Positions 5,573 to 64,000 of a stretch of 64,000 bases of DNA are shown one piece after another. The DNA lies in assembly GCA_963771385.1 (NCBI GenBank), contig CAVYTE010000011.1, positions 8,573 through 72,572 of the forward strand, written 5' to 3'. The first letter of the stretch is position 1, and the number at the start of each line of letters is the position of its first letter. A program made the position numbers and the translations under genes. Source of the DNA: an uncultured Actinomycetes bacterium. GTDB lineage: Bacteria; Actinomycetota; UBA4738; HRBIN12. The notes below the pieces were generated by a model. It ran no database searches. It saw nothing but the letters and a program-made list of their open reading frames with translations, and was not told the DNA's origin.

Positions 5573-6313
5573 TCAAGTGTTCGAAGAACACGGATCGGCC
5601 TCCGGGGCCCAGACCTCCTCCTCAATCTGTTCGAGCGCCTGACGCGCGGCCTTCTGCTGGGCAGCCTTCTTCGAGGTGCCCCTGCCCGTGCCGTGAACGC
5701 GCCCGTCGATTACGACCTGCGCCAAGAAGTCCTTGCGGTCGTCTGCGCCGCCGGATTCGTCGATCGTGTACACAGGACGGAGCTTCGGAGACACGCGCGC
5801 GAGGAATTCCTGCAGTCGGCCTTTGTAGTCGTCGATGACCCGGCCCCTGGCGTACTCACGAAGCCGCTCGCCGAACCAACGGCGAACCATCGCGGATACG
5901 GTCTCGGCCCCTTGGTCGAGATGGATGGCTCCCAGCACAGCCTCAAAGGAACCGGCCAGGATGCTCGTCTTCTCTGGGCCACCGTGACCCTTCTCACCCT
6001 TGCCCAATAGCAGGTACTCGCCCAGATGAAGTTCATTCCGAGCGACCGTGGCGAGGTTCTCGTTGTTGACGACGGCCGCCCGAATCTTGGACAGCTTGCC
6101 TTCCGCGAGGGTCGGAAACTCGTGGTAAGTCAACTCGGCAATCGCCTGCCCCAGGATCGCATCGCCCAGGAACTCAAGTCGCTCGTAGGAATCCTTAGCG
6201 AGCCTCTCCTGGACGGCGGAGTCGTGCGTAGTCGCATCCCGTAACAACTGCTGGTCGTGAAAGCTAACCCCGAGCCCTTCTTCGAGTCCTTCGAGTGTTC
6301 TCATCTCCTCCAT
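5573..6313 (-). CDS. rnc: ribonuclease III
   Basis: RNase III signature ERLEFLGDAILG, a second acidic motif SFEAVLGAIHLD, and a C-terminal dsRBD (KGRLQEFLA...GTGRGTSKKAAQQKAARQAL). Strong RBS GGAGAAGGAGGAG before ATG 6313. Many A/T-ending codons. Confidence 0.9.
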   Translation of the reverse strand: MEEMRTLEGLEEGLGVSFHDQQLLRDATTHDSAVQERLAKDSYERLEFLGDAILGQAIAELTYHEFPTLAEGKLSKIRAAVVNNENLATVARNELHLGEYLLLGKGEKGHGGPEKTSILAGSFEAVLGAIHLDQGAETVSAMVRRWFGERLREYARGRVIDDYKGRLQEFLARVSPKLRPVYTIDESGGADDRKDFLAQVVIDGRVHGTGRGTSKKAAQQKAARQALEQIEEEVWAPEADPCSSNT

Positions 6314-6419
6314 GGAAGTTCTCCTCCTTCTCCCCCCGAGGTAGGCTCGCACAGCTCGCGTGCATTGCGCTGGACTCATCCACCGGTGAAAGGGGTCAGA
6401 AGACTGACCTCCTTTACCT

Positions 6420-6458
6420 AAGCGAGCTCGAGCATCGTCAACCCCAATCAACCCGTTG
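6420..6458 (-). promoter_or_regulatory. possible degenerate fifth copy of the upstream element, before rnc
   Basis: The minus strand reads CAACGGGTTGATTGGGGTTGACGATGCTCGAGCTCGCTT, followed by TAAAGGAGGTCAG. It shares CGGGTTG, a G-run and ACGATGC with copies C and D, but the spacing is 3-4 nt shorter. Confidence 0.25.
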
Positions 6459-6621
6459 GAATCGCGGAAGCCGAAGGCCAGACGGGTGAGGAGCCGGCCG
6501 CTACTTGCGAGAAGGACCGCCCACTCGCCGCGATATGCTTCGCTGTCGTGCGCGACCGCCACAAACATCCGCCGGCCGGCAGTCTGGTACATACGCCGCT
6601 CGATCGCGCGTCTCCTGCCGG

Positions 6622-8013
6622 CTACTCGTCGAGATGGCTTCTCCCTCCCTGTCGCGGCGGCCTGAACCGCACGAAGGTCCTCCTCATCAAACGCTGGATC
6701 GGCCCGAGGACGCGCTCGGAGATCTCCGTCGACGCCGCCTCCACGACCGGGTTGAGGACACGCTCTCGGGTTCGTTGGTACGTCTCGACCACGATCGCAC
6801 CCGCGGCGACTCCGACCCCGATCGCGAAGGCCGTCTCGACTGCTCGGGCCTGCAGTGACTCGCGTACGCCTTCGCTTTCCGCCAGTAGCGGAAGCAGCGT
6901 GGCCGGAGAAGGCAGCAGCGGAAGGATCGCGGGAACCGCCCACAGTGCCGATGGAACCCATGAACGATTCGAGAGCAACCCCGCGATGACACCGATCGCT
7001 AGTGCCGCGAGGAACGTTCGCGACCCGAGCCCCATCTCGGCCGTCAACGGCGTGAGGCCGCGACCGAATATGGCCGCGATCGCGCCGAGACCCCCCACCG
7101 CCAGCAGCGAGCGACGGGGCACCCCGAAACTGCAGGCGTTGAAGCCGACGGCGACCACCGCTGCCGCGACGATCACGAAGGATGGCCACTCGAGCGGACC
7201 ACTCGCCCTAATCCGAAGGTGGACGTCCAGTCCGTCACCGAGGCTGAGGATCAGGGACACGGCCCCAGCTATGGCGGTGCCGACCAGGGCGACCTCCGCG
7301 AGCCGCGCCACTCCCGACGTGACCGACCCATCGATGAGGTCGTGCATGCCGACCACGAGCGCGTATCCGGGAAGGAACCGCAGCAAGCTGCCGGTCAGGA
7401 CGAGGCTCCCGTGGATCGGCAGAACGACCATCGCGAGCAACACCACAACCAGCGTGGTCGCGCCGACGCCGACGACGACCTGGAAGAACGACGACAGTCC
7501 GCTTCGCCCGAGCCGATCGAGCGCCGGCTGGATCGCGAGCCCGATCGCCAGCGCGACCATCGCGTCGAGGACGCTACCCCCGAACATGATGGTCACCGCG
7601 AACGTCATTGCCGCCGGAGCGCCGAAACGCAGCCACTCGGGGTAGGAGTGCCCGCTGGCGGCGATCCGATCGAGCTCTGCCTCAGCTGAGTCCAGATCCG
7701 CTCGGCCATCGCCGATGTCTCGGACGAGGATCGCTGCGGCGGCAAGCCTGTTGAAGTCCGAGCTCCACCGGCGCACCGCACGGATCGCTGTCGTGGCCTC
7801 GGCATCACCTGGCGAGACGTAGGAGACCATGACCGTCGAGTACGAGATCACGGCGTCCGCTTCGGGGAGTCCCAGTGCACGCAACGCGACGCGCAACCTA
7901 CCCTCGACCTCTTGGGCCTGCCCGCCGCTGGCGAGCATGACGACGCCGAGGCGAAGCGCAACCCGGACCGCACGCCGGCCCGCTGCCGCGGCTGGGACCG
8001 AGGACGTCGTCAC
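6622..8013 (-). CDS. threonine/serine exporter family protein (ThrE-like, fused DUF1212+DUF3815 architecture)
   Basis: 463 aa. The soluble N-terminal part (GLPEADAVISYSTVMVSY) is followed by about 10 hydrophobic helices. Lies 12 nt downstream of the mannosidase gene. Confidence 0.8.
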   Translation of the reverse strand: MTTSSVPAAAAGRRAVRVALRLGVVMLASGGQAQEVEGRLRVALRALGLPEADAVISYSTVMVSYVSPGDAEATTAIRAVRRWSSDFNRLAAAAILVRDIGDGRADLDSAEAELDRIAASGHSYPEWLRFGAPAAMTFAVTIMFGGSVLDAMVALAIGLAIQPALDRLGRSGLSSFFQVVVGVGATTLVVVLLAMVVLPIHGSLVLTGSLLRFLPGYALVVGMHDLIDGSVTSGVARLAEVALVGTAIAGAVSLILSLGDGLDVHLRIRASGPLEWPSFVIVAAAVVAVGFNACSFGVPRRSLLAVGGLGAIAAIFGRGLTPLTAEMGLGSRTFLAALAIGVIAGLLSNRSWVPSALWAVPAILPLLPSPATLLPLLAESEGVRESLQARAVETAFAIGVGVAAGAIVVETYQRTRERVLNPVVEAASTEISERVLGPIQRLMRRTFVRFRPPRQGGRSHLDE

Positions 8014-8025
8014 GTGAAGTCCCGC

Positions 8026-10632
8026 TCAATGAGGCTGGAGGTCGAACGCCGTCATGAAGTTCAGGGCGGTCTGGACTTGGTCGGCGTTCAACTCGGCGGT
8101 CTTGGTCGATTTCGGCAGGTGCACCACGTATTCGATGCCGGGGACGAGGTGGAAGTAGTTGTCACTGAAGGTCGCGTCACAGCCGTCGAGTTCCACCGCG
8201 ACGGCGTATGCGAATGCCTCCGAGACGATCCCCAGTCGGAAGTTGTCACCCTCGTCGGTCACGGAAGCACGAACCTGTGGCGCTGAGAATACGTAGCTCT
8301 TCGGAGCGACGAAGAGGTGCACGCCGCGGCTGACGGTCGCTCCGCGATCAATGACCGAGTACGCGAGGTAGTGCTCGTTCTCACCGCCACGAATCTGATC
8401 GGTGAAGTCGGCGTCGACCGCGCACGCAACCGATTGCGCGGGAACGCTGACGCGCTTCTTGCCGGCGATGACAACACGGTTCGCAACGTCGTAGAGCGTC
8501 CATTCCACGTCGACGCTGGCCGTGTCGCGCCGGTCGTTGTTGACATGAATCGCGACCTTGTTGCCCTCGGCGAGGGCGGATGCCATGACCGGCGCAAACG
8601 CGCGCTTCAGGCTGTACTGCTGCGCCTTCCAGCGGCCGTAGTAGTCGACACCGGCCCAGGACACCGTGGGCCAGCAGTCGTTGAGCTGCCAGGCCAGGTA
8701 TCCCATGCAGTCACCGGTCTGACGCCGGAAGTGCTCGACGCAGGTGGCGGTGATGACGGCGTTGACGGCCTGGGTCGCATAGACGTAGGTCGCGAAGTCG
8801 GTCGGGAGGTGGAACTCCCGGTCGACGTAGGTCTCCAGGATCTGGTTGCCTTCATGGCTCTTCTGGTGTTGGAGCATCACCTCGCTGTACGGACTGCGGT
8901 CGTCGGCAACCGTGAATGCTTCGATGGTCTTGTAGTCGGGGTAGCTCTGAAAGCCGATCTCCGTCAGGAACCGGGCGTTGAGTTGACGGATCTCCTCGTA
9001 CGGGCGCCGGCCATCGACCGCCAGATAGTAGTGGGTGTCTCCATCGGCGGTCCCTCGCAGCATGTCGGACACTTTCACCTCCCCGCGGGTATCGCTGATG
9101 GGTGATCCCTCCACCCAGCTGGTCTGCGGGTCGAGAGCGGTGACGAGCGGGGTCATCACGTCGTAGAAGAGCGTGACGATATCGGATTTCAGTGCGGAGA
9201 CGTACTGCTCGGGCAGCACCTGCTGATCAGAACCGCCCAGCGCCTCAAGCGCTTCGCGCGCCTCGGGGTCGCTGAGGATGTTCAAGGTGAGTTCTACCTC
9301 GTTGTTCCCGCTCCACAAGGCGAGCGACGCGTGGTTGCGGGCCCGTTTGACATTGTCGGTGACCTCGGCACGCACGTTGTCGATGAAGGCATCGTCGACG
9401 GGATAGAACGCGGAAGCGAACATGAAGTCGTGGAACAGCAGTATCCCATGCTCGTCGCAGAGGTCGTAGAAGTAGTCGTCGGGGTAGACGGCGCCTCCCC
9501 AGATTCGGATGAAGTTGAAGTTCGCGTCAACGCTGTCGCGAACCATCTTCCGGGCGGATTCCTCTGACCGTCGGGCGAGGATGGCGTCGGGAATGATCAT
9601 GTTGGAGCCCTTCGCGAAGATGCGGGCCCCGTTCACCTCGAACACATAGCTGCGCCCGATGTTGTCCTTCTCCCGGACGAGTCGAACCTCCCTGAGGCCC
9701 ACCTTCACCAGCTTTTCGCCGAGGATCGAGTCGCCGTCAAGGAGCCGTGCCCGCACCCGGTACAGCGGCTGGTCGCCCTGACCGGCGGGCCACCACAGCT
9801 TCGGCCCGGGCACCGGCGCCGTGATCGTGTTGAGGTCACCGTCGGCGAATGCTTCGGTTCGCTCGAAAACGACATTCCCGTCAGGATCTTCAACGGTCAA
9901 CTCGATCTTCACGTCACCATGCGTTGCCAGTCTTTCGATCTCGGAGCGGACTTCGAGGACGACAGCGCCGTCTTTGTGGTGCTGCTGCACGTACAGGTCG
10001 GCCAATCGTGCGACATCGTGGCCTTCGATGTAGATGGGACGCCAGATCCCGGAGTCGGGCAGGCTCAGTCCCCAATCCCACCCGAAGCTGCAGGCGGCCT
10101 TTCGGATGTGCGTCAGTCCTCGCGATCCGGGGTTCTCGGCTTCTACCTTGTGCACGAATCGGACGGGAGACCCGAACGAGATTGTGATTTCGTTCTCGCC
10201 CAAGCGGAGCACGTCAAGAATCGGGACGCGGTACGTGCGGTGCATGTTGTCGGTCGTCGCAACGACTGTTCCGTTGACGGTCACCGTCGCGAGCGTGTCG
10301 AGCCCTTCGCAGCAGAGCGTGACCTCGTCCCTGTCGAGGAGTTGCTGGTCGACGGTGAACGTGCGCGTGTACTCGTAGTCCTTGTCAAAGATTGCTTGGA
10401 TGGCAGACTCTTCCGCGCGATAGTAGGCGTCCGGGACGAGACCTGCGGCCAAGAGGTCGGAATAGACCGTTCCGGGCACGTGCGCATCGACCCACGAATT
10501 GTCTTCGGTGCTGCGCATTCTCCATGGGCCGTTCAATTCCAGTCGCACGTGTTGTGATACAAGCCCGTCCGCAGCGCCCGTGACGATCCCCACCTTGCCC
10601 GCCAAGTCCTCCATTCGGCCATCGGATGCCAT
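8026..10632 (-). CDS. beta-mannosidase, glycoside hydrolase family 2
   Basis: 868 aa. N-terminal LELNGPWRMRS...WVDAHVPGTVYSDLLAAGLVPDAYY, then CCEGLDTLATVTVNG, FGWDWG and IRIWGGAVYPDDYFYDLCDEHGILLFHDFMFA, all typical of GH2 mannosidases. RBS AAGGAGGAG. G+C is visibly lower than in the flanks. Confidence 0.9.
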   Translation of the reverse strand: MASDGRMEDLAGKVGIVTGAADGLVSQHVRLELNGPWRMRSTEDNSWVDAHVPGTVYSDLLAAGLVPDAYYRAEESAIQAIFDKDYEYTRTFTVDQQLLDRDEVTLCCEGLDTLATVTVNGTVVATTDNMHRTYRVPILDVLRLGENEITISFGSPVRFVHKVEAENPGSRGLTHIRKAACSFGWDWGLSLPDSGIWRPIYIEGHDVARLADLYVQQHHKDGAVVLEVRSEIERLATHGDVKIELTVEDPDGNVVFERTEAFADGDLNTITAPVPGPKLWWPAGQGDQPLYRVRARLLDGDSILGEKLVKVGLREVRLVREKDNIGRSYVFEVNGARIFAKGSNMIIPDAILARRSEESARKMVRDSVDANFNFIRIWGGAVYPDDYFYDLCDEHGILLFHDFMFASAFYPVDDAFIDNVRAEVTDNVKRARNHASLALWSGNNEVELTLNILSDPEAREALEALGGSDQQVLPEQYVSALKSDIVTLFYDVMTPLVTALDPQTSWVEGSPISDTRGEVKVSDMLRGTADGDTHYYLAVDGRRPYEEIRQLNARFLTEIGFQSYPDYKTIEAFTVADDRSPYSEVMLQHQKSHEGNQILETYVDREFHLPTDFATYVYATQAVNAVITATCVEHFRRQTGDCMGYLAWQLNDCWPTVSWAGVDYYGRWKAQQYSLKRAFAPVMASALAEGNKVAIHVNNDRRDTASVDVEWTLYDVANRVVIAGKKRVSVPAQSVACAVDADFTDQIRGGENEHYLAYSVIDRGATVSRGVHLFVAPKSYVFSAPQVRASVTDEGDNFRLGIVSEAFAYAVAVELDGCDATFSDNYFHLVPGIEYVVHLPKSTKTAELNADQVQTALNFMTAFDLQPH

Positions 10633-54317: not shown

Positions 54318-54475
54318 CGACCTCCTCCAGCGGGCGCCCGGTCAGCAGACTCGCTCAGCATGATCACGCGATCCGCCAGCTCGAGCGCCTCGGGGCGATG
54401 CGAGATCACGAGCACGGACCTGCCACGGGCGAAGTCTGCCACGTTGGCGAGCACCTCGGCCTCCATCGACCGCGC
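54314..54475 (-). pseudogene. 3' remnant of an ABC transporter ATP-binding/permease-fusion gene
   Basis: ARSMEAEVLANVADFARGRSVLVISHRPEALELADRVIMLSES matches the segment after the ABC D-loop/H-loop (..GRTvlvIaHRl..l..aDrI.vL). It begins exactly at the ndh stop codon. Confidence 0.5.
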
Positions 54476-55734
54476 TAGCGCTCCGTCTCATCCACCTGGA
54501 TCCGACCGGCACGCTGGTGCGTGAACATCGCCCAGCTCCAATCGACCACCGCCCGAGCTCGGTCCTCGCCGGTCGACAGGAGCGCCAGGTGGACCGTGCC
54601 CCAGGCGAGCCACGCCGTGGTCCCGGTGAGGGATCTTCCACGCCGGAACTGCACCACCGCGGCCTTGGGACCGATCGTGGCCATCGTCCCCTTGTCCTCG
54701 TACTCGAAGGGCTCGACCTTCTTCTTGCGGAGGGTGCGCGAGATCGTCTCGCCGGCGTGCCCTCCGGCCTGAAGCGCGACCGAACCGAGCTGCGGCAGGA
54801 CGCTCTTGGTCTTCGTGTCGGTGATCCAGGCGATGTCGCCCACGCCGAACACCTCGGGATGGTTCGGCACCGTCAGGTCCGGGCCGACCGGGACACGGTT
54901 GCCGTGCTGGAGCTCGACCCCGAGGCCCGAGACGATCGGGTTGGCCTGCAGGCCGGCGCCCCAGATCAGCGTGTGCGCCTTCAGCACCGTTCCCGACTTC
55001 AGCCGGACGCGGGTGGCCTGGATGCTCGAGACGACCTCGCCGAGCATGATCTCGACGGTTCGCTTCTCGAGCGTCTTCTTGGCGTAGGTCTGCAGTCCCT
55101 TCTTGAACATCGAGAGCACCGCGCCCCCGGCCTCGACCACGATGACCCGAGCCTTGTCTTGCGGGATGTCCGGGTAGTCCTTGGCCAGGTTCGCCCGATA
55201 GAGCTCGGCGAGTGCCCCGGCACTCTCGACACCGGTCGGACCCGCTCCGACGACGACCACGTTCAATGCGCCGTCCTCGATCAGGGCCGGGTCCCGGTCC
55301 GCCGCCGCCCAGCGCTCGAGCACGTGCTTCTTCAGGCGTACCGCGTCTGGCAGCGTGTACATCGGGAACGCGTGCTCGTCCGCGCCCGGGACCCCGAAGA
55401 AGTTGACCGTGGCCCCCAGCCCGAGCACTAGGTAGTCGTACGGGCGCGGCTTCATCTCGGCGAACGAGACTCGGCGCTCGTCGAGGTCGATCCCGGTCAC
55501 TGTGGCCTGCTTGACCGAGACGTTGTCGTGATCGTGGAACAGGTCACGGAGCGGGTGGCCGACCGTCGACGTTTCGAGGAGGTCCGTCGCCACCTGGTAC
55601 AGCAGCGGCTGGAACGTGTGGTAGTCGTGCTTGTCCACGAGCAAGATATCGGCGTCGGTGTCCTTCAGCTTCTTGACCGCCCCCACGCCTCCGAATCCGC
55701 CCCCCAGGATCACGACCTTCGAACGGTCCGGCAT
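54475..55734 (-). CDS. ndh: type II NADH dehydrogenase (NDH-2)
   Basis: KVVILGGGFGGVGAV, VVVVGAGPTGVESAG, GDIAWI. GGGGAGG RBS before ATG 55734. Confidence 0.9.
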   Translation of the reverse strand: MPDRSKVVILGGGFGGVGAVKKLKDTDADILLVDKHDYHTFQPLLYQVATDLLETSTVGHPLRDLFHDHDNVSVKQATVTGIDLDERRVSFAEMKPRPYDYLVLGLGATVNFFGVPGADEHAFPMYTLPDAVRLKKHVLERWAAADRDPALIEDGALNVVVVGAGPTGVESAGALAELYRANLAKDYPDIPQDKARVIVVEAGGAVLSMFKKGLQTYAKKTLEKRTVEIMLGEVVSSIQATRVRLKSGTVLKAHTLIWGAGLQANPIVSGLGVELQHGNRVPVGPDLTVPNHPEVFGVGDIAWITDTKTKSVLPQLGSVALQAGGHAGETISRTLRKKKVEPFEYEDKGTMATIGPKAAVVQFRRGRSLTGTTAWLAWGTVHLALLSTGEDRARAVVDWSWAMFTHQRAGRIQVDETER

Positions 55735-55870
55735 CGGGACCTCCCCTGTCTCGATCGAAGAGTTCACAATCTAGCGGGTAGCACTCGTAAGCAACTCGCC
55801 GCCATTCGTGGCAGCATCGGTCTCGACGGCCTGATCCGGCTCGAGGCTTCCGATAGAACGGAGGACCGCG

Positions 55871-57277
55871 ATGGCGAACGCATCGGTAGCGGACCCTCGC
55901 AACGCGGACGTGCTGGTGATCTTCGGGATCACCGGCGACCTGGCCAAGGTGATGACGTTCCGATCTCTGTACCGATTGGAACGGCGAGGGCTCCTCGACT
56001 GCCCGATCCTGGGCGTCGCGGTCGACGACTGGTCGGTGGACGACCTGAGGGAGCGGGCCCGGACCTCGATCGTCGGCACGGGCGAGCCGCTGGACGAGGC
56101 GATCTTCGAGCCCCTCGCCTCGCGGTTCTCGTACGTCGCCGGCGACTTCTCCGACACCGAGACCTACAAGCACGTGGCCGACGCGATCTCGGAGGCCCGG
56201 ATGCCTGTCTTCTACTTGGAGATCCCGCCGTTCCTATTCGGCACGGTGATCAGGGGTCTGCACGACGCGGGTCTGACGGACGCGGCCAGGGTGGTGGTCG
56301 AGAAGCCGTTCGGGCACGACCGCGAGTCCGCTCATGCGCTCGCGGAGGAGATCCACCGGTACATCGACGAGTCGCAGCTGTATCGGATCGACCACTACCT
56401 AGGGAAGATGGGGCTCGGCGAGATCCTGCACCTGCGGTTCGCCAACGCGATGCTCGAGCCGGTCTGGAGCCGCACCTTCCTGTCCACCGTCCAGATCACG
56501 ATGGCGGAGTCGTTCGGCGTCGAGGATCGCGGTCACTTCTACGATCCCGTGGGAGCGTTGCGTGACGTGGTCGTGAACCACTTGATGCAGCTGGTCGCGG
56601 CCTGCGCGATGGAGGCGCCGTCCCGCGGGGACCCGTCGACCATCAAGGACGCGCAGGTCAACATCTTCCGAGCTGTCGCCGAGGCCGACCCGGCGCACTA
56701 CGTCCGCGGGCAGTACGAGGGCTACCGGGAGATCGACGGGGTCGCGAAGGACTCGTCGACCGAGACGTTCGCGGCGCTTCGTCTCGACATCGAGAACTGG
56801 CGGTGGGAGGGCGTCCCCTTCTTCATCCGAGCGGGCAAGCGCCTGCCGATCACCCAGACCGAACTGCGGCTGGTGTTCAAGCATCCCCCGAGGCTCGGGT
56901 TCGGGCTCCTGGATCGCCGGCCGGAGGAGAACCAGCTCGTGGTTCGACTCGACCCGACGACCGGCATCCGGCTGACCGTCGAGGCGCACCGGGCCGACAC
57001 GGAGGGGGCCGCCCCGATCCATCTGGACATGGAGTTCGCCGAGGACGGGGGCGAGGGACCGACGCCGTACGAGGTGCTCCTCCATGCTGCGATGAAGGGC
57101 GACAGCACGCGCTTCATCCGGCAGGACGCCGTCGAGGAGACTTGGCGCGTATTCCAGCCGCTGCTGGACGCGCCGCCGTCCGTCCAGCCGTACGTACCGT
57201 CGACGTGGGGTCCTGACGCGGCCAACGAGCTGGTCGAGGGATCCGGGAGGTGGCACGAGCCGTGGGTGAGCCGATGA
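55871..57277 (+). CDS. zwf: glucose-6-phosphate dehydrogenase
   Basis: VIFGITGDLA, VVEKPFGHD, RIDHYLGK. 468 aa. Confidence 0.95.
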   Translation: MANASVADPRNADVLVIFGITGDLAKVMTFRSLYRLERRGLLDCPILGVAVDDWSVDDLRERARTSIVGTGEPLDEAIFEPLASRFSYVAGDFSDTETYKHVADAISEARMPVFYLEIPPFLFGTVIRGLHDAGLTDAARVVVEKPFGHDRESAHALAEEIHRYIDESQLYRIDHYLGKMGLGEILHLRFANAMLEPVWSRTFLSTVQITMAESFGVEDRGHFYDPVGALRDVVVNHLMQLVAACAMEAPSRGDPSTIKDAQVNIFRAVAEADPAHYVRGQYEGYREIDGVAKDSSTETFAALRLDIENWRWEGVPFFIRAGKRLPITQTELRLVFKHPPRLGFGLLDRRPEENQLVVRLDPTTGIRLTVEAHRADTEGAAPIHLDMEFAEDGGEGPTPYEVLLHAAMKGDSTRFIRQDAVEETWRVFQPLLDAPPSVQPYVPSTWGPDAANELVEGSGRWHEPWVSR

Positions 57278-59169
57278 GCCAACGCGACAAGCAGATGCCC
57301 GACGGCCAAAGTGCGGCGATGCCGTCGCCCTTCCCCCCGATCGCCGATTTTGCGTTCCTGTCCGACTGCCACACCGGAGCGCTGATCGCGCCGGACGGAG
57401 CGGTGGACTGGCTGTGCGTCCCGCGGTTCGATTCGCCGAGCATCTTCGGCAGCCTGCTCGATCGGCAGGCCGGGGCGTTCCGGTTCGGCCCGTACGGCAT
57501 CAACGTCCCGTCGCAGATCGCGTACGAACCAGGGACGAACGTCCTCGTGACGACGTGGAAGACGCCGGCTGGATGGGTGGTCGTGCGCGACGCGCTCACG
57601 ATGGGACCTCGCGAAGGCGAGGACAGCGTGACCCCCCACACTCGTCCCCCCGCCGACGACGACGCCGACCACACGCTGGTGCGCACGGTCACGTGCCTGG
57701 ACGGGCAGGTCGAGATCGAGCTCGTCTGCGAGCCGATCTTCGACTACGGCCGCGACGATCCGAACTGGACGATCGAGCACGACGACGGCCACTCGGCCGT
57801 GGCGACGGGAGGGGAACTCACGATCCGGCTCCAAACCGACCTGTCGCTCGGCGTCGAGGGTGAACGGGTGCGTGCCCGTCACGCCCTGAACGCCGGGGAG
57901 CGCGCGTACTGCTCGCTCTCATGGGGCAACGACATGGCCGGCCCCGCCGACGTGGACGAGGCGGAGGCCCGCATCGCCGCCACCGTCCGGTACTGGAGAG
58001 GGTGGCTCGGACGGGCTCGCATCCCGGATCACCGCTGGCGTGAACCGATCCAACGTTCGGCCCTCGTGGTCAAGGGGCTCACCTACATGCCGACGGGAGC
58101 CACGGTCGCCGCTCTTACGACCTCGCTGCCCGAGACCCCGGGCGGCGAGCGGAACTGGGACTACCGCTTCACGTGGATGCGCGACTCCACATTCACGCTG
58201 CAGGCGCTGCACTATCTCAACCTGGACTGGGAGGCCGACGAGTTCATGCAGTTCATCGCCGACCTGGAGCCCAACGACGATGGCGCGATACAGATCATGT
58301 ACGGGATCGACGGTCGGCGGGACCTGACCGAGTCGACGCTCGACGGCATGTCGGGGTACGCCGGCGCACGCCCGGTGCGGATCGGCAACGGCGCCTACAA
58401 CCAGCGACAGAACGATGTCTACGGAGCCGTGCTCGACTCTATCCTCATGCACACACGCCGCAGCCAGCGCCTCCCCAGGCGTCTGTGGCCGGTCGTTCAA
58501 TCACAAGCGGAGTGTGCGACACGGGTGTGGCGCGAGCCCGACCAGGGCATCTGGGAGGCACGAGGTGCGCCGCAGCAGTACGTCTCCTCGAAGCTCATGT
58601 GCTGGGTCGCGCTCGACCGGGCGGCCAAGCTCGCCCACATCGCCGGGGATCCCGAACTCGCGCTGACCTGGGACAAGACGGCGGAGGAGATCCATCAGGA
58701 CATCCTCGATCACGGAATGAGCGACCACGGGGTCCTGCGCCAGCACTACGACACGGACGCGCTCGACGCCTCGACGCTGCTCGCGCCGATCTTCGGGTTC
58801 CTCCCGGGGACCGATGAACGTATGCACGCATCGGTGCTCGCGATCGCCGACGAGCTCACCGAGAACGGGTACGTGCTCCGGTACCGGACCGACGAGACGG
58901 ACGACGGCCTGTCGGGCAAGGAGGGCACGTTCCTGATCTGCTCGTTCTGGCTGGTGTCGGGGCTCGCGATCGTCGGCGAGGAACAGCGTGCGCGAGACCT
59001 CATGGAACGGCTGCTGCGAATCGCCTCCCCGCTAGGGCTGTACGCCGAGGAATACGACGTCGAGACCGGGCGGCACCTCGGCAACACCCCGCAGGCGTTC
59101 TCGCACCTGGCCCTGATCGAGGCGGCCGGCAGGATCATCCTCTCCGAGCGGGTGGCGGAGATCTCATGA
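57274..59169 (+). CDS. glycoside hydrolase family 15 protein (glucoamylase/trehalase-like)
   Basis: ATG 57274 overlaps the zwf stop (ATGA). IADFAFLSDCHTGALIAPDGAVDWLCVPRFDSPSIFG, NWDYRFTWMRDS, EGTFLICSFWLV and AFSHLALIEAA are typical of GH15. Confidence 0.9.
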   Translation: MSQRDKQMPDGQSAAMPSPFPPIADFAFLSDCHTGALIAPDGAVDWLCVPRFDSPSIFGSLLDRQAGAFRFGPYGINVPSQIAYEPGTNVLVTTWKTPAGWVVVRDALTMGPREGEDSVTPHTRPPADDDADHTLVRTVTCLDGQVEIELVCEPIFDYGRDDPNWTIEHDDGHSAVATGGELTIRLQTDLSLGVEGERVRARHALNAGERAYCSLSWGNDMAGPADVDEAEARIAATVRYWRGWLGRARIPDHRWREPIQRSALVVKGLTYMPTGATVAALTTSLPETPGGERNWDYRFTWMRDSTFTLQALHYLNLDWEADEFMQFIADLEPNDDGAIQIMYGIDGRRDLTESTLDGMSGYAGARPVRIGNGAYNQRQNDVYGAVLDSILMHTRRSQRLPRRLWPVVQSQAECATRVWREPDQGIWEARGAPQQYVSSKLMCWVALDRAAKLAHIAGDPELALTWDKTAEEIHQDILDHGMSDHGVLRQHYDTDALDASTLLAPIFGFLPGTDERMHASVLAIADELTENGYVLRYRTDETDDGLSGKEGTFLICSFWLVSGLAIVGEEQRARDLMERLLRIASPLGLYAEEYDVETGRHLGNTPQAFSHLALIEAAGRIILSERVAEIS

Positions 59170-59194
59170 GGCGGACCTACCCGAAGGATCCGAC

Positions 59195-59266
59195 ATGAGC
59201 GACTACGACGTCATCGTCATCGGGACGGGTGCCGGAGGCGGTACCCTCGCCTGGCATCTAGCGCGA
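59195..59266 (+). pseudogene. 24-codon 5' stub of an FAD-dependent (GMC-type) oxidoreductase
   Basis: RBS GAAGGA, then [23 protein letters not shown] (GxGxxG dinucleotide fold start). After this the frame turns into Ser/Arg/Pro junk. Confidence 0.45.
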
Positions 59267-59363
59267 TCTTCCTCGTCGCGGCCGGCGCGACCTGGATCGC
59301 GGGCATCTTCCTCTCCGACGCCACCGACGTCGTCGACAAGCGCTTCAACCTGGGAGAGGCGAC

Positions 59364-59740
59364 GGCCGCGAGCCCGCCGCCGACCCGAGCCACGAACAGC
59401 ACGGCCTCGTTCGGCGCCCACGCCGCGAGCAGACTGAACGGGATCGCGAGCGCGGTTCCGACGATCAGCATCATCTTGCGTCCGTACCGATCGCCGAGCG
59501 CGCCGAGATACAGGACCGAGGCCGCGAGCCCCAGCGAGTACCCCACCGCTATCAGGTTGAGGCTGGTCTGGAGGCGTCGAACGCCGCTCCGATCGACGGC
59601 AGGGCGACGTTGGCCACCGCGAGGTTCAGGTTGGCGACGGCCGCAACCAGGATGAGCGCCAGCAGGACGAGTCCGGCGCCCTCCGGCGCCGTCGAGGTAT
59701 CCGATCGCCGATCCGCCGACGTCCGCGCGTCATCCTTCAT
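59364..59740 (-). pseudogene. 5' part of an MFS (DHA-type) transporter, frameshifted and 3'-truncated
   Basis: [34 protein letters not shown] (ORF 59552..59740) continues in another frame as [68 protein letters not shown]. The join is near 59565. Similarity ends near 59364. Confidence 0.65.
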
Positions 59741-60124
59741 GGCCTCCCTCCTCCGGGTGTGTCCATGTTCACGCCCGCTCCCTCATCGCCAACGCTGCCA
59801 GCCTCGGTGCGGACGGGCGGAGCGACCCAGCGCCGTCGATCGGGCATCGCACCGGCCGCTCACGGGACGTTACCTCGCCCAGCCCATCGAAGGCCTCGCA
59901 ACCAGTCCGGGTCCAGACCGACGGCGGCCGAACGCACCGGCCAGTGTCCGCGTCGCTCGAAGGCTGGAGGACGGCCTCGCGAGCCCAGCGCCACCGCCAC
60001 TCGCTCTATCTCAACCTTCCTGCGCACCGGTCCGTGTTGCCGCGGAGAGGCCGGCGATCTATGGTGATCCCGGGCCACGGACCCTAGCGAGACTGCACAC
60101 CGAGCTCTAACGAAAGGATCGAAC

Positions 60125-60583
60125 ATGGCAGACGTGTCCCTGGATGAACTCGGTCCCGTTGACTACATCGTCGTCGAGTTTCCGGCAGGAGCGAGCAACT
60201 TCACGGGCGAGATGGCGAAAGAACTGCTCGCTTTGGTGGACTCCGGAACGATCCGCGTGATCGACGTGCTGATCCTGACCAAGAACGAGGACGGTTCCAT
60301 CGAGGCGATGGAGCTTTCCGACGTCCCCGAGCTCGGAGCACTCCAAGCGGTCGAGGCGCAGCTGGCGGAGCTGTTGGCCGAGGAAGACGTCGTGCACCTC
60401 GCCGCCGCCATGGAACCAGGGAGCACTGCTGGAGTGCTGATCTGGGAGAACCTGTGGGCCGCGCCATTCGCCTCAGCGGCGCGGCGTTCTGGTGGCCAAC
60501 TGATCGCGAACGGACGGATCCCGATCCAGGCGATCATCGCCTCCATCGAGGCCGATGAGGCATCTCCAACCGAAGGAGGCTGA
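60125..60583 (+). CDS. DUF6325-like protein (family label from memory)
   Basis: MADVSLDELGPVDYIVVEFPAGASNFTGE...GTIRVIDVLILTKNEDGSIEAMEL...GSTAGVLIWENLWAAPFASAARRSGGQLIANGRIPIQAI. Paralog of 63311..63739. Confidence 0.75.
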   Translation: MADVSLDELGPVDYIVVEFPAGASNFTGEMAKELLALVDSGTIRVIDVLILTKNEDGSIEAMELSDVPELGALQAVEAQLAELLAEEDVVHLAAAMEPGSTAGVLIWENLWAAPFASAARRSGGQLIANGRIPIQAIIASIEADEASPTEGG

Positions 60584-60585
60584 AC

Positions 60586-60750
60586 ATGCCAGTGAGGCGA
60601 GCGCGTGTAGGAAGAGTGGGAGTCATCGGCGCCCCGGTGGCGAAGACCGCGGTCGTGGCAAAAGCCGTCACACCTGGCCCCTCCCCGGTAGCGAAGACCG
60701 CGGTCGTGGCCGCAGCCGTCACACCTGGGCGGCGTCGTCGGCGGATCTAA
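60586..60750 (+). CDS. 54-aa ORF resembling only the N-terminal part of the SHOCT-partner proteins
   Basis: GGAGG lies 6 nt upstream of the ATG, which starts 3 nt after the DUF6325-like stop. MPVRRARVGRVGVIGAPVAKTAVVAKAVTPGPSPVAKTAVVAAAVTPGRRRRRI, compared with MMMRRGPGLIGAAVTTAVVAGTATAVRGRVGRR at 63758. There is no SHOCT domain. Confidence 0.4.
   Translation: MPVRRARVGRVGVIGAPVAKTAVVAKAVTPGPSPVAKTAVVAAAVTPGRRRRRI
60634..60729 (+). repeat. tandem duplication (two 45-nt units 51 nt apart)
   Basis: CCGGTGGCGAAGACCGCGGTCGTGGCAAAAGCCGTCACACCTGGC against CCGGTAGCGAAGACCGCGGTCGTGGCCGCAGCCGTCACACCTGGG (40 of 45 identical). Confidence 0.65.
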
Positions 60751-60862
60751 CCACAAGCTGAGCCCTGAGGCATGTAAGGCGCAGCCTGTCAGCATAGCTC
60801 CGACCCATCCTTGCGCTCCGTGATCGCCTCTGTCAGGTGACCCCTACGGCTGCTGAACGTGC

Positions 60863-61849
60863 TCAGTCGTCGATCTCCTCCCAGACCGAGTGCTCGTCGT
60901 GCTCCTCCCACTCGGCGCCCGGCATCGCGATTGCCCAGCGCGTCCATGTCCCCATCGGCCGAGCCGGGGCGGTCCTGACCCTGGCGCGGACAACCATGTC
61001 GGGTGTGAGCTCCACGGGTGAGCGTAGCGGGGCCGTCGTCATACCCCAGTGCGTCGGCGGATCGGCGGGTCCCACCGAGAGCGAGACGCCGGGCGCGAGC
61101 TCGGCGCTGAACCAGAGTGCGAGCGCGTTGGCCGTTCCGGGCTCGGAAACCCGCAGCAGCGTCTCGGCTTCGTGGGGCGCCTCGGCCTGCTCGAGCGGGA
61201 TCACGTCCGCGTCCGTGCTCCACAACCGACCTGGCTCGGAGCGCCGGTCACCCTCCGTAAGGTGACGGTAGGCGCCGGAATAGAGGATCTCGTTGACGGT
61301 CATCTCGACCAGACCATCGAACCTGACACCGTACGGGTTGTCCTGCAGGAAACCCAGCGTCTCGCGGAGGTGGCGATCGTGCACCAGTCCGGCCGATGCC
61401 GTGACCGAGCTGGGGATCATTGCGCCGCCCGGCTTGAGCCAGCGGTCACGGGCGGCGATGACCGGAACCAGCATCCCTTCGTCGATCCCGAACCCGCCGA
61501 GCCACTCCGAGACGATCACGTCGACACGTTCCGGGAGCTCGATGCCGATGATGTCGCCGTGGATCACCTGGACGATCTCCGCGACCCCGTTGGCGGCGGC
61601 CAGCTCCTGCGCCAGGACGGCGACCGTCGTCCGCTCCACCGCGTAGACGCGCGCAGCTCCTGCCCTCGCCGCGAACAGGCTCAGGATGCCGGTCCCCGCT
61701 CCGACGTCGAGCACGACGTCGCCCGGGCGCACCACCGAGTCGATCGCACGACGGAAGGCCTCGGTGCGGACGCGGTCGCAGAGCATCGTGCGATGGACCT
61801 CGATCTCCGCGTACATCGGGTCCGTCGGGTTCCTGATCGGCGTCCGCAT
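60863..61849 (-). CDS. protein arginine N-methyltransferase (PRMT)-like class I SAM-dependent methyltransferase
   Basis: HRTMLCDRVRTEAFRRAI, motif I VVLDVGAGTGILSLFAARAGA, post-I VYAVE, double-E loop VIVSEWLGGFGIDEGML (E-x8-E), THW loop PPTHWGMT, and a C-terminal beta-barrel-length extension. 328 aa from ATG 61849. Confidence 0.85.
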   Translation of the reverse strand: MRTPIRNPTDPMYAEIEVHRTMLCDRVRTEAFRRAIDSVVRPGDVVLDVGAGTGILSLFAARAGAARVYAVERTTVAVLAQELAAANGVAEIVQVIHGDIIGIELPERVDVIVSEWLGGFGIDEGMLVPVIAARDRWLKPGGAMIPSSVTASAGLVHDRHLRETLGFLQDNPYGVRFDGLVEMTVNEILYSGAYRHLTEGDRRSEPGRLWSTDADVIPLEQAEAPHEAETLLRVSEPGTANALALWFSAELAPGVSLSVGPADPPTHWGMTTAPLRSPVELTPDMVVRARVRTAPARPMGTWTRWAIAMPGAEWEEHDEHSVWEEIDD

Positions 61850-61926
61850 GGTGCGTATTGTATGTTCTCGGTGTTCGTGGGCCGCTGACAAGCATGCCCA
61901 GGCGATCGAGTGAAGGGGGGTCTCTG

Positions 61927-62205
61927 ATGGGAATGAGGCGAAGGACGAGGCGCCGGGCGCTCGTCGCCGGGGCGGCGATCGCTCACCATCGTGGCAATGT
62001 GAACGCGGAGCAGCAGGAGGCCGCCTACGCGGAGGGGCAGCAAGCCGCCGCGCAGCAGGCACCGCCCGCCGCAGAGCCGGCGCAGTACGCGCCGCCTCCA
62101 CCCGACCCGGCGGAAGAGATCGAACACCTCGCCCAGTTGCACGAATCGGGTGCGATGACCGACGAGGAGTTCACGGCGGCCAAGGCGAAGGTCCTGGGGG
62201 CCTGA
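61927..62205 (+). CDS. SHOCT domain protein
   Basis: MGMRRRTRRRALVAGAAIAHH..., a Q/A/P-rich linker, and IEHLAQLHESGAMTDEEFTAAKAKVLGA (SHOCT motif). Confidence 0.8.
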   Translation: MGMRRRTRRRALVAGAAIAHHRGNVNAEQQEAAYAEGQQAAAQQAPPAAEPAQYAPPPPDPAEEIEHLAQLHESGAMTDEEFTAAKAKVLGA

Positions 62206-62260
62206 ACGGATCTTGCCTCGTCCGGGAAACGGCCGATAGATCTACACCGCGAAGGGAGAG

Positions 62261-62680
62261 GTGGCTGCGATGAGTGGATCGCGTAAAGAGGTGCTGTTGA
62301 AGGCGCTCGAGGCCGAGGTCGGTGGCGGATCGGACGATCTGAGCGCTCTGTTCACCGACGATGTCGTCGGCTGGTCGCCCTATGCGACCGTGTCAGGGCT
62401 CACGGCGCTCGGCGAGCTGGCCGCCCTCCGCGAGTTGGCGTTTTCCAACGTCGTCCTGTCGTTCCGGGGACTCGATGAGGTGGGCAACAAGGCCTTCGCT
62501 GAATGGCTCATCGAAGCCGATCACACGGGGCCACTCGTCCTCGGCGAGGACGCAGCGCTTGACGCAACGGGACGGCACGTCCAACTTGCCGGTGTCACGG
62601 TGGCCGACTTCCGCGACGAGAAGATCCGGTCGTACCGGACGTACTTCGACGACATCTCGCTGATCGAGCAGCTCGTCTGA
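62261..62680 (+). CDS. NTF2-like/SnoaL-like small protein
   Basis: 139 aa: ...LFTDDVVGWSPYATVSGL...FRGLDEVGNKAFAEWLIEADHTGPL...GVTVADFRDEKIRSYRTYFD. Confidence 0.65.
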   Translation: MAAMSGSRKEVLLKALEAEVGGGSDDLSALFTDDVVGWSPYATVSGLTALGELAALRELAFSNVVLSFRGLDEVGNKAFAEWLIEADHTGPLVLGEDAALDATGRHVQLAGVTVADFRDEKIRSYRTYFDDISLIEQLV

Positions 62681-62692
62681 CCAGCCACCGCA

Positions 62693-63148
62693 GTGGAGTT
62701 TCACGTCGAAGACGATCCGGATCCGCTCGACATCGGATTCCTCGAAACGCAGATCCGCCGTGAGGCGTCCGCCGCCATGGGGCTCGGTGACGAAGCCGAG
62801 CTGGCGATCTTCGTGCGCGAGGCCGGCAAGATCGTAGCCGGCATCAGTGGCTGGACCTGGGGTGACGGCTGCGAGCTGCAGAGCCTCTGGGTGGATCCGA
62901 ATCTCCGGGGTCGTTGGCTCGGGCCGCGGCTTCTCGCGGCCGCCGAGGCCGAGGCCGCGGCCCGCGGCTGCACGCAGACCGTTCACTTCACGTACGACTT
63001 TCAGGCTCGGCGCCTGTATGAATGGGCGGGCTACGACCTAGTGGGTCGGGTCGAGGGCTTCCCATCGGGAGCGAACGCCCTCTGGTACCGCAAGCGCCTG
63101 AACCCACCTCCGGTCGCGCAGAGCCAGCGCGCGACCGGCCGTCGCTAG
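62693..63148 (+). CDS. GNAT family N-acetyltransferase
   Basis: LQSLWVDPNLRGRWLGPRLLAAAEAEAAARGCTQTVHFTYDFQARRLYEWAGYDLVG is the acetyl-CoA-binding motif A pattern. Confidence 0.8.
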   Translation: MEFHVEDDPDPLDIGFLETQIRREASAAMGLGDEAELAIFVREAGKIVAGISGWTWGDGCELQSLWVDPNLRGRWLGPRLLAAAEAEAAARGCTQTVHFTYDFQARRLYEWAGYDLVGRVEGFPSGANALWYRKRLNPPPVAQSQRATGRR

Positions 63149-63310
63149 CAAACGGGCTGTCAGCCAGGGCCAGCTCGTGAGTTCATGCTCCTCCAGGTGG
63201 TAGCCGGCTCGAAACAGCAGCGCCCGGAAGGTACGAGGTGCAGCGGCTCGGAACGAGCCCTACCATGCAGGCGAGCCCGCTCCGCACCGGGAGACAGGAA
63301 GGAGGATCGG

Positions 63311-63739
63311 ATGAGCATCGGCCCCGTCGAGTACCTGATCGTGGCGTTCCCCGGGAACCGGTTCAAGGGTGAGATCGTCCCGGCGCTCAAGGAACAGGTG
63401 GATACGGGAACCATCAGGATCATCGACCTCGCGTTCGTGCTGAAGGATGCGGACGGCGCGGTCGTGACTGCCGAGATGGGGGATCTGGATTCGGAGGTCT
63501 ACAAGGCGTTCGACTCGCTCTCGCCGGAGCAGATGGGTCTGCTGAACGAGGAGGACCTCGCCGCCGCCGGCGAAGAGCTCGAGCCCAACTCGTCCGCCGC
63601 CCTCCTCGTATGGGAGGACGTGTGGGCGACGAAGATCCGCGATGCGATCGTGAACGCCGGAGGCGAGCTGCTCGACCTCGAGCGGGTCCCGTACGAGGTC
63701 GTTCAGGCGGCCGTCGAGTTCGCCGAGGCCAACAGGTAG
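63311..63739 (+). CDS. DUF6325-like protein (second copy)
   Basis: RBS GGAAGGAGGA, then MSIGPVEYLIVAFPGNRFKGEIVPALKEQVDTGTIRIIDLAFVLKDADGAVVTAEM...SSAALLVWEDVWATKIRDAIVNAGGELLDLERVPYEVV. Confidence 0.8.
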   Translation: MSIGPVEYLIVAFPGNRFKGEIVPALKEQVDTGTIRIIDLAFVLKDADGAVVTAEMGDLDSEVYKAFDSLSPEQMGLLNEEDLAAAGEELEPNSSAALLVWEDVWATKIRDAIVNAGGELLDLERVPYEVVQAAVEFAEANR

Positions 63740-63757
63740 CCGAAGGAGGAATGGACG

Positions 63758-64000
63758 ATGATGATGCGCAGAGGACCCGGCCTCATCGGGGCGGCGGTCA
63801 CGACCGCGGTCGTCGCGGGAACCGCCACGGCCGTCAGGGGTCGCGTCGGTCGGCGGCAGCAGCAGAAGTTCGCCTCGCAGGACGCCGCCTACGTGCAGCA
63901 ACAGGCCGCGGCCGCCGAGGCCGGCTACGAGCAGCAGGCCGCCGCGCCACCTCCCGAGGAGGATCCGACCGTGCAGATCCAGAAGCTCGCACAGCTCCAC
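63758..64000 (+). CDS. SHOCT-type partner protein, 5' part (runs off right edge)
   Basis: GAAGGAGGA lies 7 nt before the ATGATGATG start. MMMRRGPGLIGAAVTTAVVAGTATAVRGRVGRRQQQKFASQDAAYVQQQAAAAEAGYEQQAAAPPPEEDPTVQIQKLAQLH is the beginning of a SHOCT motif. Confidence 0.7.
   Translation, partial: MMMRRGPGLIGAAVTTAVVAGTATAVRGRVGRRQQQKFASQDAAYVQQQAAAAEAGYEQQAAAPPPEEDPTVQIQKLAQLH

Follow-up and report, generated by a model that had tools for sequence, protein, structure and literature searches.

The window analysed here is the whole 64,000-nucleotide (nt) stretch of DNA from an uncultured Actinomycetes bacterium (assembly GCA_963771385.1, contig CAVYTE010000011.1), and all coordinates refer to it. 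Close to its right-hand end, an open reading frame (ORF) on the minus strand (60863-61849) encodes a 328-amino-acid (aa) PRMT-type product (PRMT, protein arginine methyltransferase), and beyond a short spacer lie three small genes, whose products are a SHOCT-domain protein, a protein of the SnoaL/NTF2-like kind and an acetyltransferase of the GNAT family. We found that these four genes form a conserved module. An initial annotation, made from the letters alone, had read the ORF as a complete eukaryote-type PRMT in a bacterial accessory locus; the ORF and each motif quoted in it were found at their coordinates and in the right order, and the antiparallel orientation and the 77-nt divergent spacer were confirmed as well. 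The features of the module are the following.

60863-63148: extent of the module in the window.
60863-61849, minus strand: coding sequence of the PRMT-like methyltransferase, 328 aa, stop codon at 60863-65; Rossmann S-adenosylmethionine (SAM) domain, beta-barrel with dimerisation arm, acidic C-tail.
61754-61795, minus strand: helix-Y (alpha-Y, H..ML.D..R) motif HRTMLCDRVRTEAF, from the phmmer alignment with PDB sequences.
61679-61714, minus strand: motif I VLDVGAGTGILS, SAM binding, aligned to PRMT6.
61634-61648, minus strand: post-I motif VYAVE with the ribose-binding Glu72, aligned to PRMT6.
61478-61510, minus strand: double-E loop SEWLGGFGIDE (E115 and E124, with 8 residues between both Glu).
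61037-61060, minus strand: THW loop PPTHWGMT (T266, W268).
61857-61862, minus strand: -10-like hexamer TACAAT, 7 nt before the ATG of the PRMT gene; predicted promoter of a leaderless PRMT mRNA.
61850-61926, no strand: divergent spacer of 77 nt, bounded by the -10 of the PRMT gene and the Shine-Dalgarno sequence GAAGGGGGG of the SHOCT gene.
61927-62205, plus strand: module gene 1, SHOCT protein, 92 aa; candidate substrate or adaptor.
62261-62680, plus strand: module gene 2, SnoaL/NTF2-like protein, 139 aa.
62693-63148, plus strand: module gene 3, GNAT acetyltransferase, 151 aa.

The start of the PRMT-like gene was fixed by comparison with 80 related loci. Conservation of the protein set in exactly at (M/V)RTPIRNP in 80/80 of them, and the sequence 5′ of this point was unconserved and frequently interrupted by stop codons; the start at 61849 is thus correct, and a 412-aa version beginning at an upstream GTG was rejected as spurious. 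The catalytic positions are strongly conserved. Residues H19, M22, D25 and R28, which by positional mapping correspond to H45, M48, D51 and R54 of PRMT1 (L23 is kept too), together with G50, G52, E115, E124, T266 and W268 were invariant or at least 90% conserved among 80 diverse homologues; within this set G50 and G52 of motif I and W268 were invariant, and D48 of motif I and T266 reached at least 90%. The double-E and THW loops were kept in at least 98% of 81 family members. The YFxxY lid (alpha-X) is reduced to its last tyrosine, Y13, and its place is taken by a conserved N-terminal peptide specific to the family, RTPIRNPPDP. This peptide (residues 1-11) carries two invariant arginines and may serve as a lid or an automethylation site, and at the other end residues 313-328 make up an acidic tail, EWEEHDE..WEEIDD, that is conserved too; the aligned PRMT6 has nothing equivalent to either end. 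The calculated isoelectric point (pI) of the whole enzyme is 4.9. Directly 3′ of the PRMT stop codon, about 15 nt (60848-60862) were 87-91% conserved in many loci, a stretch that extends to as much as 45 nt among the closest relatives; it showed no hairpin resembling a terminator.

A phmmer search of all PDB sequences returned PRMT6 first (E 1.9e-43, residues 12-299), followed by PRMT2, PRMT1, PRMT8, PRMT3 and CARM1, with at most 152 bits for the best solved eukaryotic PRMT. The alignment with PRMT6 was collinear over the full length at 33-34% identity, and it set SEWLGGFGIDE on SEWMGYGLLHE and PPTHWGMT on PATHWKQA. In Pfam, residues 155-296 matched PRMT_C with 32.1 bits, where the cut-off is 27, and PRMT5 likewise exceeded its gathering cut-off. 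An AlphaFold2 model computed from 80 homologues had a mean predicted local distance difference test (pLDDT) value of 93.7 and a predicted template-modelling (pTM) score of 0.91, with low confidence over residues 1-8, and contained the barrel as well as helices at 159-169 and 178-185. Searched with Foldseek, this model superposed on PRMT6 with template-modelling (TM) scores of 0.81-0.83, on PRMT3 with 0.84/0.89 at a root-mean-square deviation of 2.3 Å, and on PRMT1 of T. brucei with 0.85; the superpositions spanned about 320 columns and included the helices of the dimerisation arm. The complete PRMT claimed in the initial annotation was therefore borne out, with type I architecture, by PDB matches, Pfam profiles and structure prediction alike, and the ORF encodes, with near certainty, an enzyme of the PRMT family. 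In eukaryotic enzymes, type I (asymmetric) products are associated with a methionine where PRMT1 has Met48, and type I PRMTs require a dimer mediated by the arm. The enzyme is probably a dimer, and its conserved active-site residues make it very likely to be catalytically active.

The genomic surroundings were then compared by tblastn of the window's neighbour proteins against the 80 related loci. The SHOCT gene was linked to the PRMT gene in 80/80 loci, the SnoaL-like gene in 76/80 and the GNAT gene in 75/80; DUF6325 genes, which flank the module in the window, lay near the PRMT gene (within 6 kb) in only 21-22/80, and zwf and GH15 in almost none. Four gene orders were observed: the divergent arrangement of the window (n=52), SHOCT>SnoaL>GNAT>PRMT (n=14), PRMT>SHOCT>SnoaL>GNAT (n=7) and a convergent one (n=3). 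Where PRMT follows GNAT in tandem, the gap before it was mostly 12-56 nt, and in a gene-called locus (L085) the GNAT gene directly adjoins the PRMT gene and overlaps with that for SnoaL. The SHOCT, SnoaL and GNAT genes form an operon, and the PRMT gene is the fourth gene that stays with it. Linkage that persists through four gene orders is the classical signature of a functional unit, and it is highly probable that the PRMT works with its three partners. The remaining flanking genes, among them those for DUF2252, MalT-like LuxR regulators, DUF7144, SulP-STAS, CMD and Bestrophin-like proteins, recurred in only 2-24/80 loci at 33-70% identity. One related locus (L012) carries two complete PRMT modules 2.4 kb apart (PRMT genes at 6001-6984 and 9349-10326), and the metagenome-assembled genomes (MAGs) CAWEQQ, CAWEMC and CAWEUN carry two copies each on different contigs, which indicates that the module has been duplicated within genomes.

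Neither a description of a conserved PRMT-SHOCT-SnoaL-GNAT module nor a characterised bacterial PRMT-type protein methylase was found in the literature searched; what is new here is this module together with its Arg-rich candidate substrate. MepM of M. smegmatis was considered as a related case and set aside, having no PRMT link and the term being absent from its paper. An anti-phage defence function was likewise rejected: the PADLOC defence models gave only a generic Rossmann-core match to the mad2 methyltransferase, and the partner proteins had no matches. As to the specificity of the GNAT and SnoaL proteins, only uncharacterised acetyltransferases from structural genomics and sub-threshold family matches were obtained.

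When the divergent spacers were aligned, a conserved TACAAT-like hexamer stood out 7 nt before the PRMT start. Over the 80 loci, 59 have a TANNNT hexamer (TACAAT/TACGAT type) at a distance of 5-9 nt from the start codon; many of the other 21/80, for example those with the order PRMT>SHOCT, have a Shine-Dalgarno sequence (GGAG or AGGA) there instead. A simple scan for the sigma-70 consensus found nothing, and the -10 emerged only from the comparison of loci. Such a distance between -10 and start codon is typical of leaderless mRNAs in Actinomycetota. In the window the PRMT gene would accordingly be transcribed without a leader and divergently from the operon, which would explain the frequent GTG start and the missing Shine-Dalgarno sequence. 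A riboswitch or other RNA in the spacer or module was ruled out, Rfam giving no match at E<=1 in window positions 59000-64000 or in 8 related loci.

The invariant partner of the PRMT is the small SHOCT protein. Its gene starts at 61927 behind the Shine-Dalgarno sequence mentioned above, and its N-terminus in the window, MGMRRRTRRRALVAGAA, is rich in arginine. Across the loci the consensus MG[F/M]RRR[T/V]RRRA[L/V/I] was essentially invariant in nearly all intact copies. This tip is followed by a short G/A-rich stretch, two histidines (HH) and an acidic, Q/P-rich linker variable in length and sequence, and the protein ends in the conserved ...QYAPPPADPADEIEHLAQLHASGALTDEEFAAAKAKILG, the SHOCT domain. 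The module protein is a paralogue (37-47% identity) of the SHOCT partners of DUF6325 proteins, for example the one encoded from 63758 (MMMRRGPGLIGAAVTTAVVAGTATAVRGRVGRRQQ...). SHOCT domains have been proposed to act in oligomerisation, nucleic-acid binding or anchoring to the inner membrane leaflet (PMC3581485, PMC11237479), the last being predicted for SHOCT-like domains (PMC11237479). A broad family of small proteins of about 90-110 aa was also observed that shares an Arg-rich N-terminus, a G/A/T-rich hydrophobic stretch, a Q/P/A-rich linker and a SHOCT domain (window 63308-64000, L004, L046, L063, L081, L330 and others); these proteins are paired with DUF6325 or SnoaL-like genes, and they also occur, without a PRMT, in a MAG labelled Acidobacteriota (L362).

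The reading that we favour, at a probability of about 0.5, is that the enzyme is an active, dimeric, type-I-like guanidino-N-methyltransferase that probably acts on peptidyl arginine and works together with its partners. PRMT6, the solved enzyme nearest to it, has arginine-rich motifs among its targets, for example in HIV Tat and Rev, and the low pI together with the conserved acidic C-tail would suit a basic macromolecular substrate. On balance we lean towards a protein rather than a metabolite as the substrate. The initial annotation had suggested the Arg-rich N-termini of SHOCT proteins in the neighbourhood as substrates; our results strengthen this idea, and the RRR[T/V]RRR tip of the module's own SHOCT partner is our tentative choice, with the odds somewhat against it. 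In the proposed mechanism, the enzyme would methylate peptidyl arginine first in this tip (candidate peptide GMRRRTRRRALVAGAA) and perhaps also in the Arg-rich tips of the paralogous SHOCT proteins that are paired with DUF6325. The GNAT protein would add a second, charge-neutralising modification, and the NTF2-like (SnoaL) protein might bind the small SHOCT protein or a ligand. Both modifications could tune the partner binding of a small, probably membrane-proximal SHOCT protein in a variable, stress-type gene neighbourhood. A stronger version, which we regard as doubtful, is a dedicated bacterial tail-modifying system in which the PRMT and the GNAT share the SHOCT tip as substrate, the NTF2-like protein is its reader or partner, and the whole has spread, in part horizontally, among uncultured soil Actinomycetota and genomes labelled Chloroflexia. 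If it were true, a pair of writers would act on a short basic tail by a logic like that of histone-tail modification, and bacteria would have their first system of PRMT-type protein-arginine methylation for which a native substrate is defined.

Several observations weigh against the favoured reading. The Arg-rich N-terminus and the G/A-rich hydrophobic stretch are general in the small SHOCT family, also where no PRMT is nearby, and the tip may thus serve membrane or topology functions instead of methylation. Proteins of the SnoaL-like and GNAT kinds typically tailor small molecules. Most of the YFxxY lid found in eukaryotic type I PRMTs is missing, and on inspection of the sequence the equivalent of PRMT1 E129 is an isoleucine. 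In a search of sequencing runs, only DNA metagenome runs matched, with at most 31% of the words. Finally, SznE/StzE, an arginine-guanidino methyltransferase of Streptomyces, acts on free L-arginine (PMC11705231).

This last enzyme leads to the main rival explanation, which we consider unlikely, namely that the module enzyme methylates free L-arginine or another guanidino metabolite in the way of SznE/StzE. The GNAT and SnoaL-like proteins would then contribute further steps, of tailoring or binding, to a short pathway of metabolism or detoxification, with the SHOCT protein as a scaffold or regulator. SznE/StzE makes N-omega-methyl-L-arginine (PMC11705231) and has served as a genome-mining probe (PMC12637814), and bacterial PRMT-like methylases are known from secondary-metabolite operons (PMC3417536), a context similar to that of a distant homologue of the window enzyme, P0138; the SnoaL and GNAT families also commonly act on small molecules. 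However, no non-ribosomal peptide synthetase (NRPS) or polyketide synthase, SznF-like enzyme, transporter or amine oxidase was consistently linked to the clade of the window enzyme, and no riboswitch was found. Moreover, the partner that never varies is a small protein, conserved in its Arg-rich tip, and the enzyme retains the full PRMT beta-barrel and dimer arm along with a pI and an acidic tail that fit a basic macromolecule. Were the substrate a metabolite after all, the module would amount to a new short pathway to a methylated or acetylated guanidino compound.

It is improbable, in our view, that the PRMT instead serves other cellular proteins (ribosomal, nucleoid-associated or RNA-binding) and that SHOCT, SnoaL and GNAT are its regulators or localisation factors. 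Eukaryotic type I PRMTs do have many substrates, and Arg-rich tips occur on SHOCT proteins unlinked to any PRMT; SHOCT-like domains have also been proposed to localise disparate enzymes at the membrane (PMC11237479). The tight four-gene linkage despite rearrangement nevertheless argues for a dedicated relationship, and a housekeeping role fits poorly with the patchy, multi-copy distribution, in which L012 has two modules and several MAGs have two copies.

The family is widespread, although the initial annotation had regarded such enzymes as essentially eukaryotic and rare in bacteria. A word-indexed search returned 2650 proteins, and the best 120 of them were all 78-100% identical to the window enzyme and came from soil or sediment metagenomes. 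In contigs taken from one genome per species we counted 203 stretches coding for a relative, which corresponds to about 200 species-level genomes; the exact coding pattern of the double-E loop was present in more than 120 contigs, and an exhaustive representative library gave 13,663 homologous cluster representatives overall. The listed records are all MAGs, with no cultured isolate among them, from soil Actinomycetota and in part labelled Chloroflexia; the labels read Solirubrobacterales, Gaiellaceae, Thermoleophilia, Acidimicrobiales, Microthrixaceae, Streptosporangiaceae, Mycobacteriales and others. About 10 records labelled Chloroflexia were 72-77% identical, and most of these have the module partners beside the PRMT gene in the fetched 8-kb stretch. 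The window clade is tight (at least 72% identity), and in the representative library, clustered at 50% identity, the family falls to a single representative, P0121, an outlier at 65% identity without module partners. The weight that might be given to such conservation as a special sign is tempered, because zwf and GH15 of the window likewise keep 73-83% identity between classes and even between phyla.

Around the module the window contains the following neighbours and remnants.

59195-59740, no strand: rearrangement scar with remnants of an oxidoreductase of the flavin adenine dinucleotide (FAD) type and of an MFS transporter.
59195-59264, plus strand: FAD oxidoreductase remnant, the first ~24 codons.
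59217-59740, minus strand: truncated MFS transporter.
60125-60583, plus strand: DUF6325 gene, a neighbour outside the core module.
60586-60750, plus strand: 54-aa Arg-rich ORF after DUF6325, with an internal tandem duplication.
63308-63739, plus strand: second DUF6325 gene, likewise a neighbour.
From 63758, past the window end (64000), plus strand: SHOCT partner of the second DUF6325.

The two DUF6325 partners have the N-termini MPVRRARVGR... and MMMRRGPGL.... These neighbours bear on a scenario that goes back to the initial annotation, in which a PRMT derived from eukaryotes was recently inserted and split a pre-existing DUF6325/SHOCT pair. The antiparallel orientation of the PRMT gene and a SHOCT-less 54-aa ORF on one side of it favour this scenario at first sight, as does the rearranged state of the region. 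However, the SHOCT gene (61927-62205) shows a start and an N-terminus that are conserved in their own right, and it opens the partner operon that belongs to the PRMT, being linked to the PRMT in 80/80 loci regardless of DUF6325, which was counted in 22/80. The 54-aa ORF, which the initial annotation took for a truncated partner, contains an internal tandem duplication of about 45 nt (PVAKTAVVAKAVTPG, twice) and no SHOCT domain. It stands beside DUF6325 in L054 and L299 (93% aa identity) and is conserved at the DNA level in L275 and L216, and in these relatives it lies away from the PRMT 3′ end or in a locus without a PRMT match. Insertion of the PRMT gene therefore did not create this ORF, which is a real variant partner and no one-off truncation.

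At a larger scale the insertion claim fared better, in that the region around the entire block has been rearranged and lacks synteny. The genes zwf and GH15 (trehalase-like), at 54475-59169 in the window with an overlap of 28 nt, were also seen as a pair in L288-L367, usually with NDH-2 nearby and at 73-83% aa identity in many Actinomycetota; GH15 alone was 75-77% conserved in Reyranella soli (Alphaproteobacteria) and in an Acidobacteriota MAG. The pair zwf then GH15 was conserved in 63/80 GH15 loci, and in some relatives an FAD oxidoreductase gene directly follows GH15. In the window only its remnant is left, fused to an inverted fragment (59267-59368) that is 89% identical to L288 20816-20917, and to the truncated MFS transporter. 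PRMT, SnoaL and GNAT genes were found within 10 kb in none of 80 zwf/GH15 loci elsewhere. Since the remnants are present and 0/80 GH15 loci carry the module, the block from about 60.1 kb onwards is rearranged and non-syntenic.

We also compared the divergence of the module with that of zwf in the same genome pairs (window vs L001/L090, L004/L087, L013/L104 and L016/L121). The synonymous divergence of PRMT/zwf was 0.25/0.42, 0.27/0.56, 0.44/0.91 and 0.45/0.92, as estimated by the NG86 (Nei-Gojobori) method on GC-rich DNA with zwf as the one control gene. The SnoaL and GNAT genes gave values between those of PRMT and zwf, the ratio of non-synonymous to synonymous divergence (dN/dS) was similar at about 0.2-0.3, and the low values of PRMT were uniform along the gene. 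Identity to the window at four-fold sites was mostly 0.6-0.8 for PRMT and roughly 0.4-0.6 for zwf. With a single control gene, this suggests that the module is younger than its host lineages or has been exchanged between them; a synonymous divergence of roughly half the zwf value would agree with horizontal exchange of the module and fits some movement from bacterium to bacterium. Carriage by known mobile elements was rejected: no family member was found among PLSDB plasmids (only homologues of 33-38% identity, in Tropicibacter and Tistrella), INPHARED phages or IMG/VR contigs.

A eukaryotic origin, in contrast, is not supported. Below P0121 the next tier of representatives has 38-48% identity at 220-275 bits, which outscores every solved eukaryotic PRMT, and the three contigs read from this tier were all bacterial; on one of them, the gene of P0138 (40% identity) adjoins that of a 5851-aa protein, with an amine oxidase nearby. 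In a rough neighbour-joining tree computed without support values, the window clade sits on a long stem amid bacterial representatives, and PRMT6 clusters elsewhere with lysine-rich, presumably eukaryotic ones. GC content is typical of the window. Bacterial PRMT-like methylases, encoded in secondary-metabolite operons, were described by Aravind and co-workers on the basis of comparative genomics, and eukaryotic PRMTs were proposed to derive from this bacterial radiation (PMC3417536). Neither the rarity put forward in the initial annotation nor the transfer from a eukaryote that it considered is upheld by these data, and recent insertion of a eukaryotic PRMT into a DUF6325/SHOCT pair is very improbable.

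Close matches are named "type I protein arginine methyltransferase" by JGI and "50S ribosomal protein L11 methyltransferase" by NCBI, the latter on P0006, P0031, P0038 and P0073; the NCBI name also stands on the distant PRMT-like proteins of the Tropicibacter and Tistrella plasmids (H1 and H2). A generic class I methyltransferase or PrmA, the L11 methyltransferase that the NCBI pipeline names and the best match by E-value in both Pfam and NCBIfam, can be dismissed, because the matches are confined to the Rossmann core (Pfam profile positions 153-259 of 296; NCBIfam equivalog TIGR00406 positions 152-236 of 288, at 40.9 bits where 183.15 are required), the double-E and THW loops align with their PRMT counterparts, and the C-terminal 170 aa form a PRMT barrel. 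The outcome that the initial annotation had named as refuting a PRMT, generic best matches with these two loops out of alignment, did not arise. From the profile scores, the L11-methyltransferase naming is a systematic misannotation, which the present assignment corrects.

PRMT-fold protein arginine methylation is textbook eukaryotic biology, and we know of no bacterial PRMT-type enzyme with a defined native protein substrate. The locus offers an enzyme of only 328 aa whose active site is intact, a linked candidate substrate with an invariant motif of seven residues and a linked acetyltransferase, so that bacterial PRMT-type arginine methylation and its target become a question directly testable with four small synthetic genes. 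It also gives a first functional handle on the widespread, uncharacterised small SHOCT proteins of soil bacteria and on their DUF6325 and SnoaL partners.

Compared with known systems, PrmA has in common with the window protein the class I Rossmann core, which accounts for the automated name, but the window protein lacks the N-terminal substrate (L11-binding) domain of PrmA and has a PRMT barrel in its place. The DUF6325+SHOCT pairs, which flank the PRMT on both sides in the window, resemble the module in the build of their SHOCT proteins, where the Arg-rich N-terminus is joined through a G/A-rich stretch and a Q/P/A linker to the SHOCT domain, whereas the SHOCT protein of the module is paired with the SnoaL-like, GNAT and PRMT proteins and has the specific RRR[T/V]RRR tip. 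SznE/StzE of the streptozotocin pathway, compared here by its published description, is likewise an actinobacterial SAM-dependent arginine-guanidino methylase; it acts on free L-arginine within a biosynthetic cluster with SznF, whereas the window enzyme stands beside SHOCT, SnoaL, GNAT and DUF6325 genes, and no SznF-like N-oxygenase or tailoring genes were present in four gene-called neighbourhoods of the family. The bacterial PRMT-like peptide methylases (PMC3417536) belong to the same bacterial radiation of the PRMT fold, and P0138 lies in such a context. The window clade is nevertheless separate from them and has SHOCT, SnoaL and GNAT partners instead, with no NRPS, peptide dioxygenase or LSD1-like amine oxidase in the window or in the four gene-called neighbourhoods. 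With the eukaryotic type I PRMTs the window protein shares motif I, post-I, the double-E and THW loops, the methionine at the M48 position, and the barrel with its dimerisation arm. Unlike them, it is a bacterial, minimal enzyme of 328 aa without accessory domains, with one lid tyrosine, its own RTPIRNPPDP end and an acidic C-tail, and it is encoded in a four-gene module.

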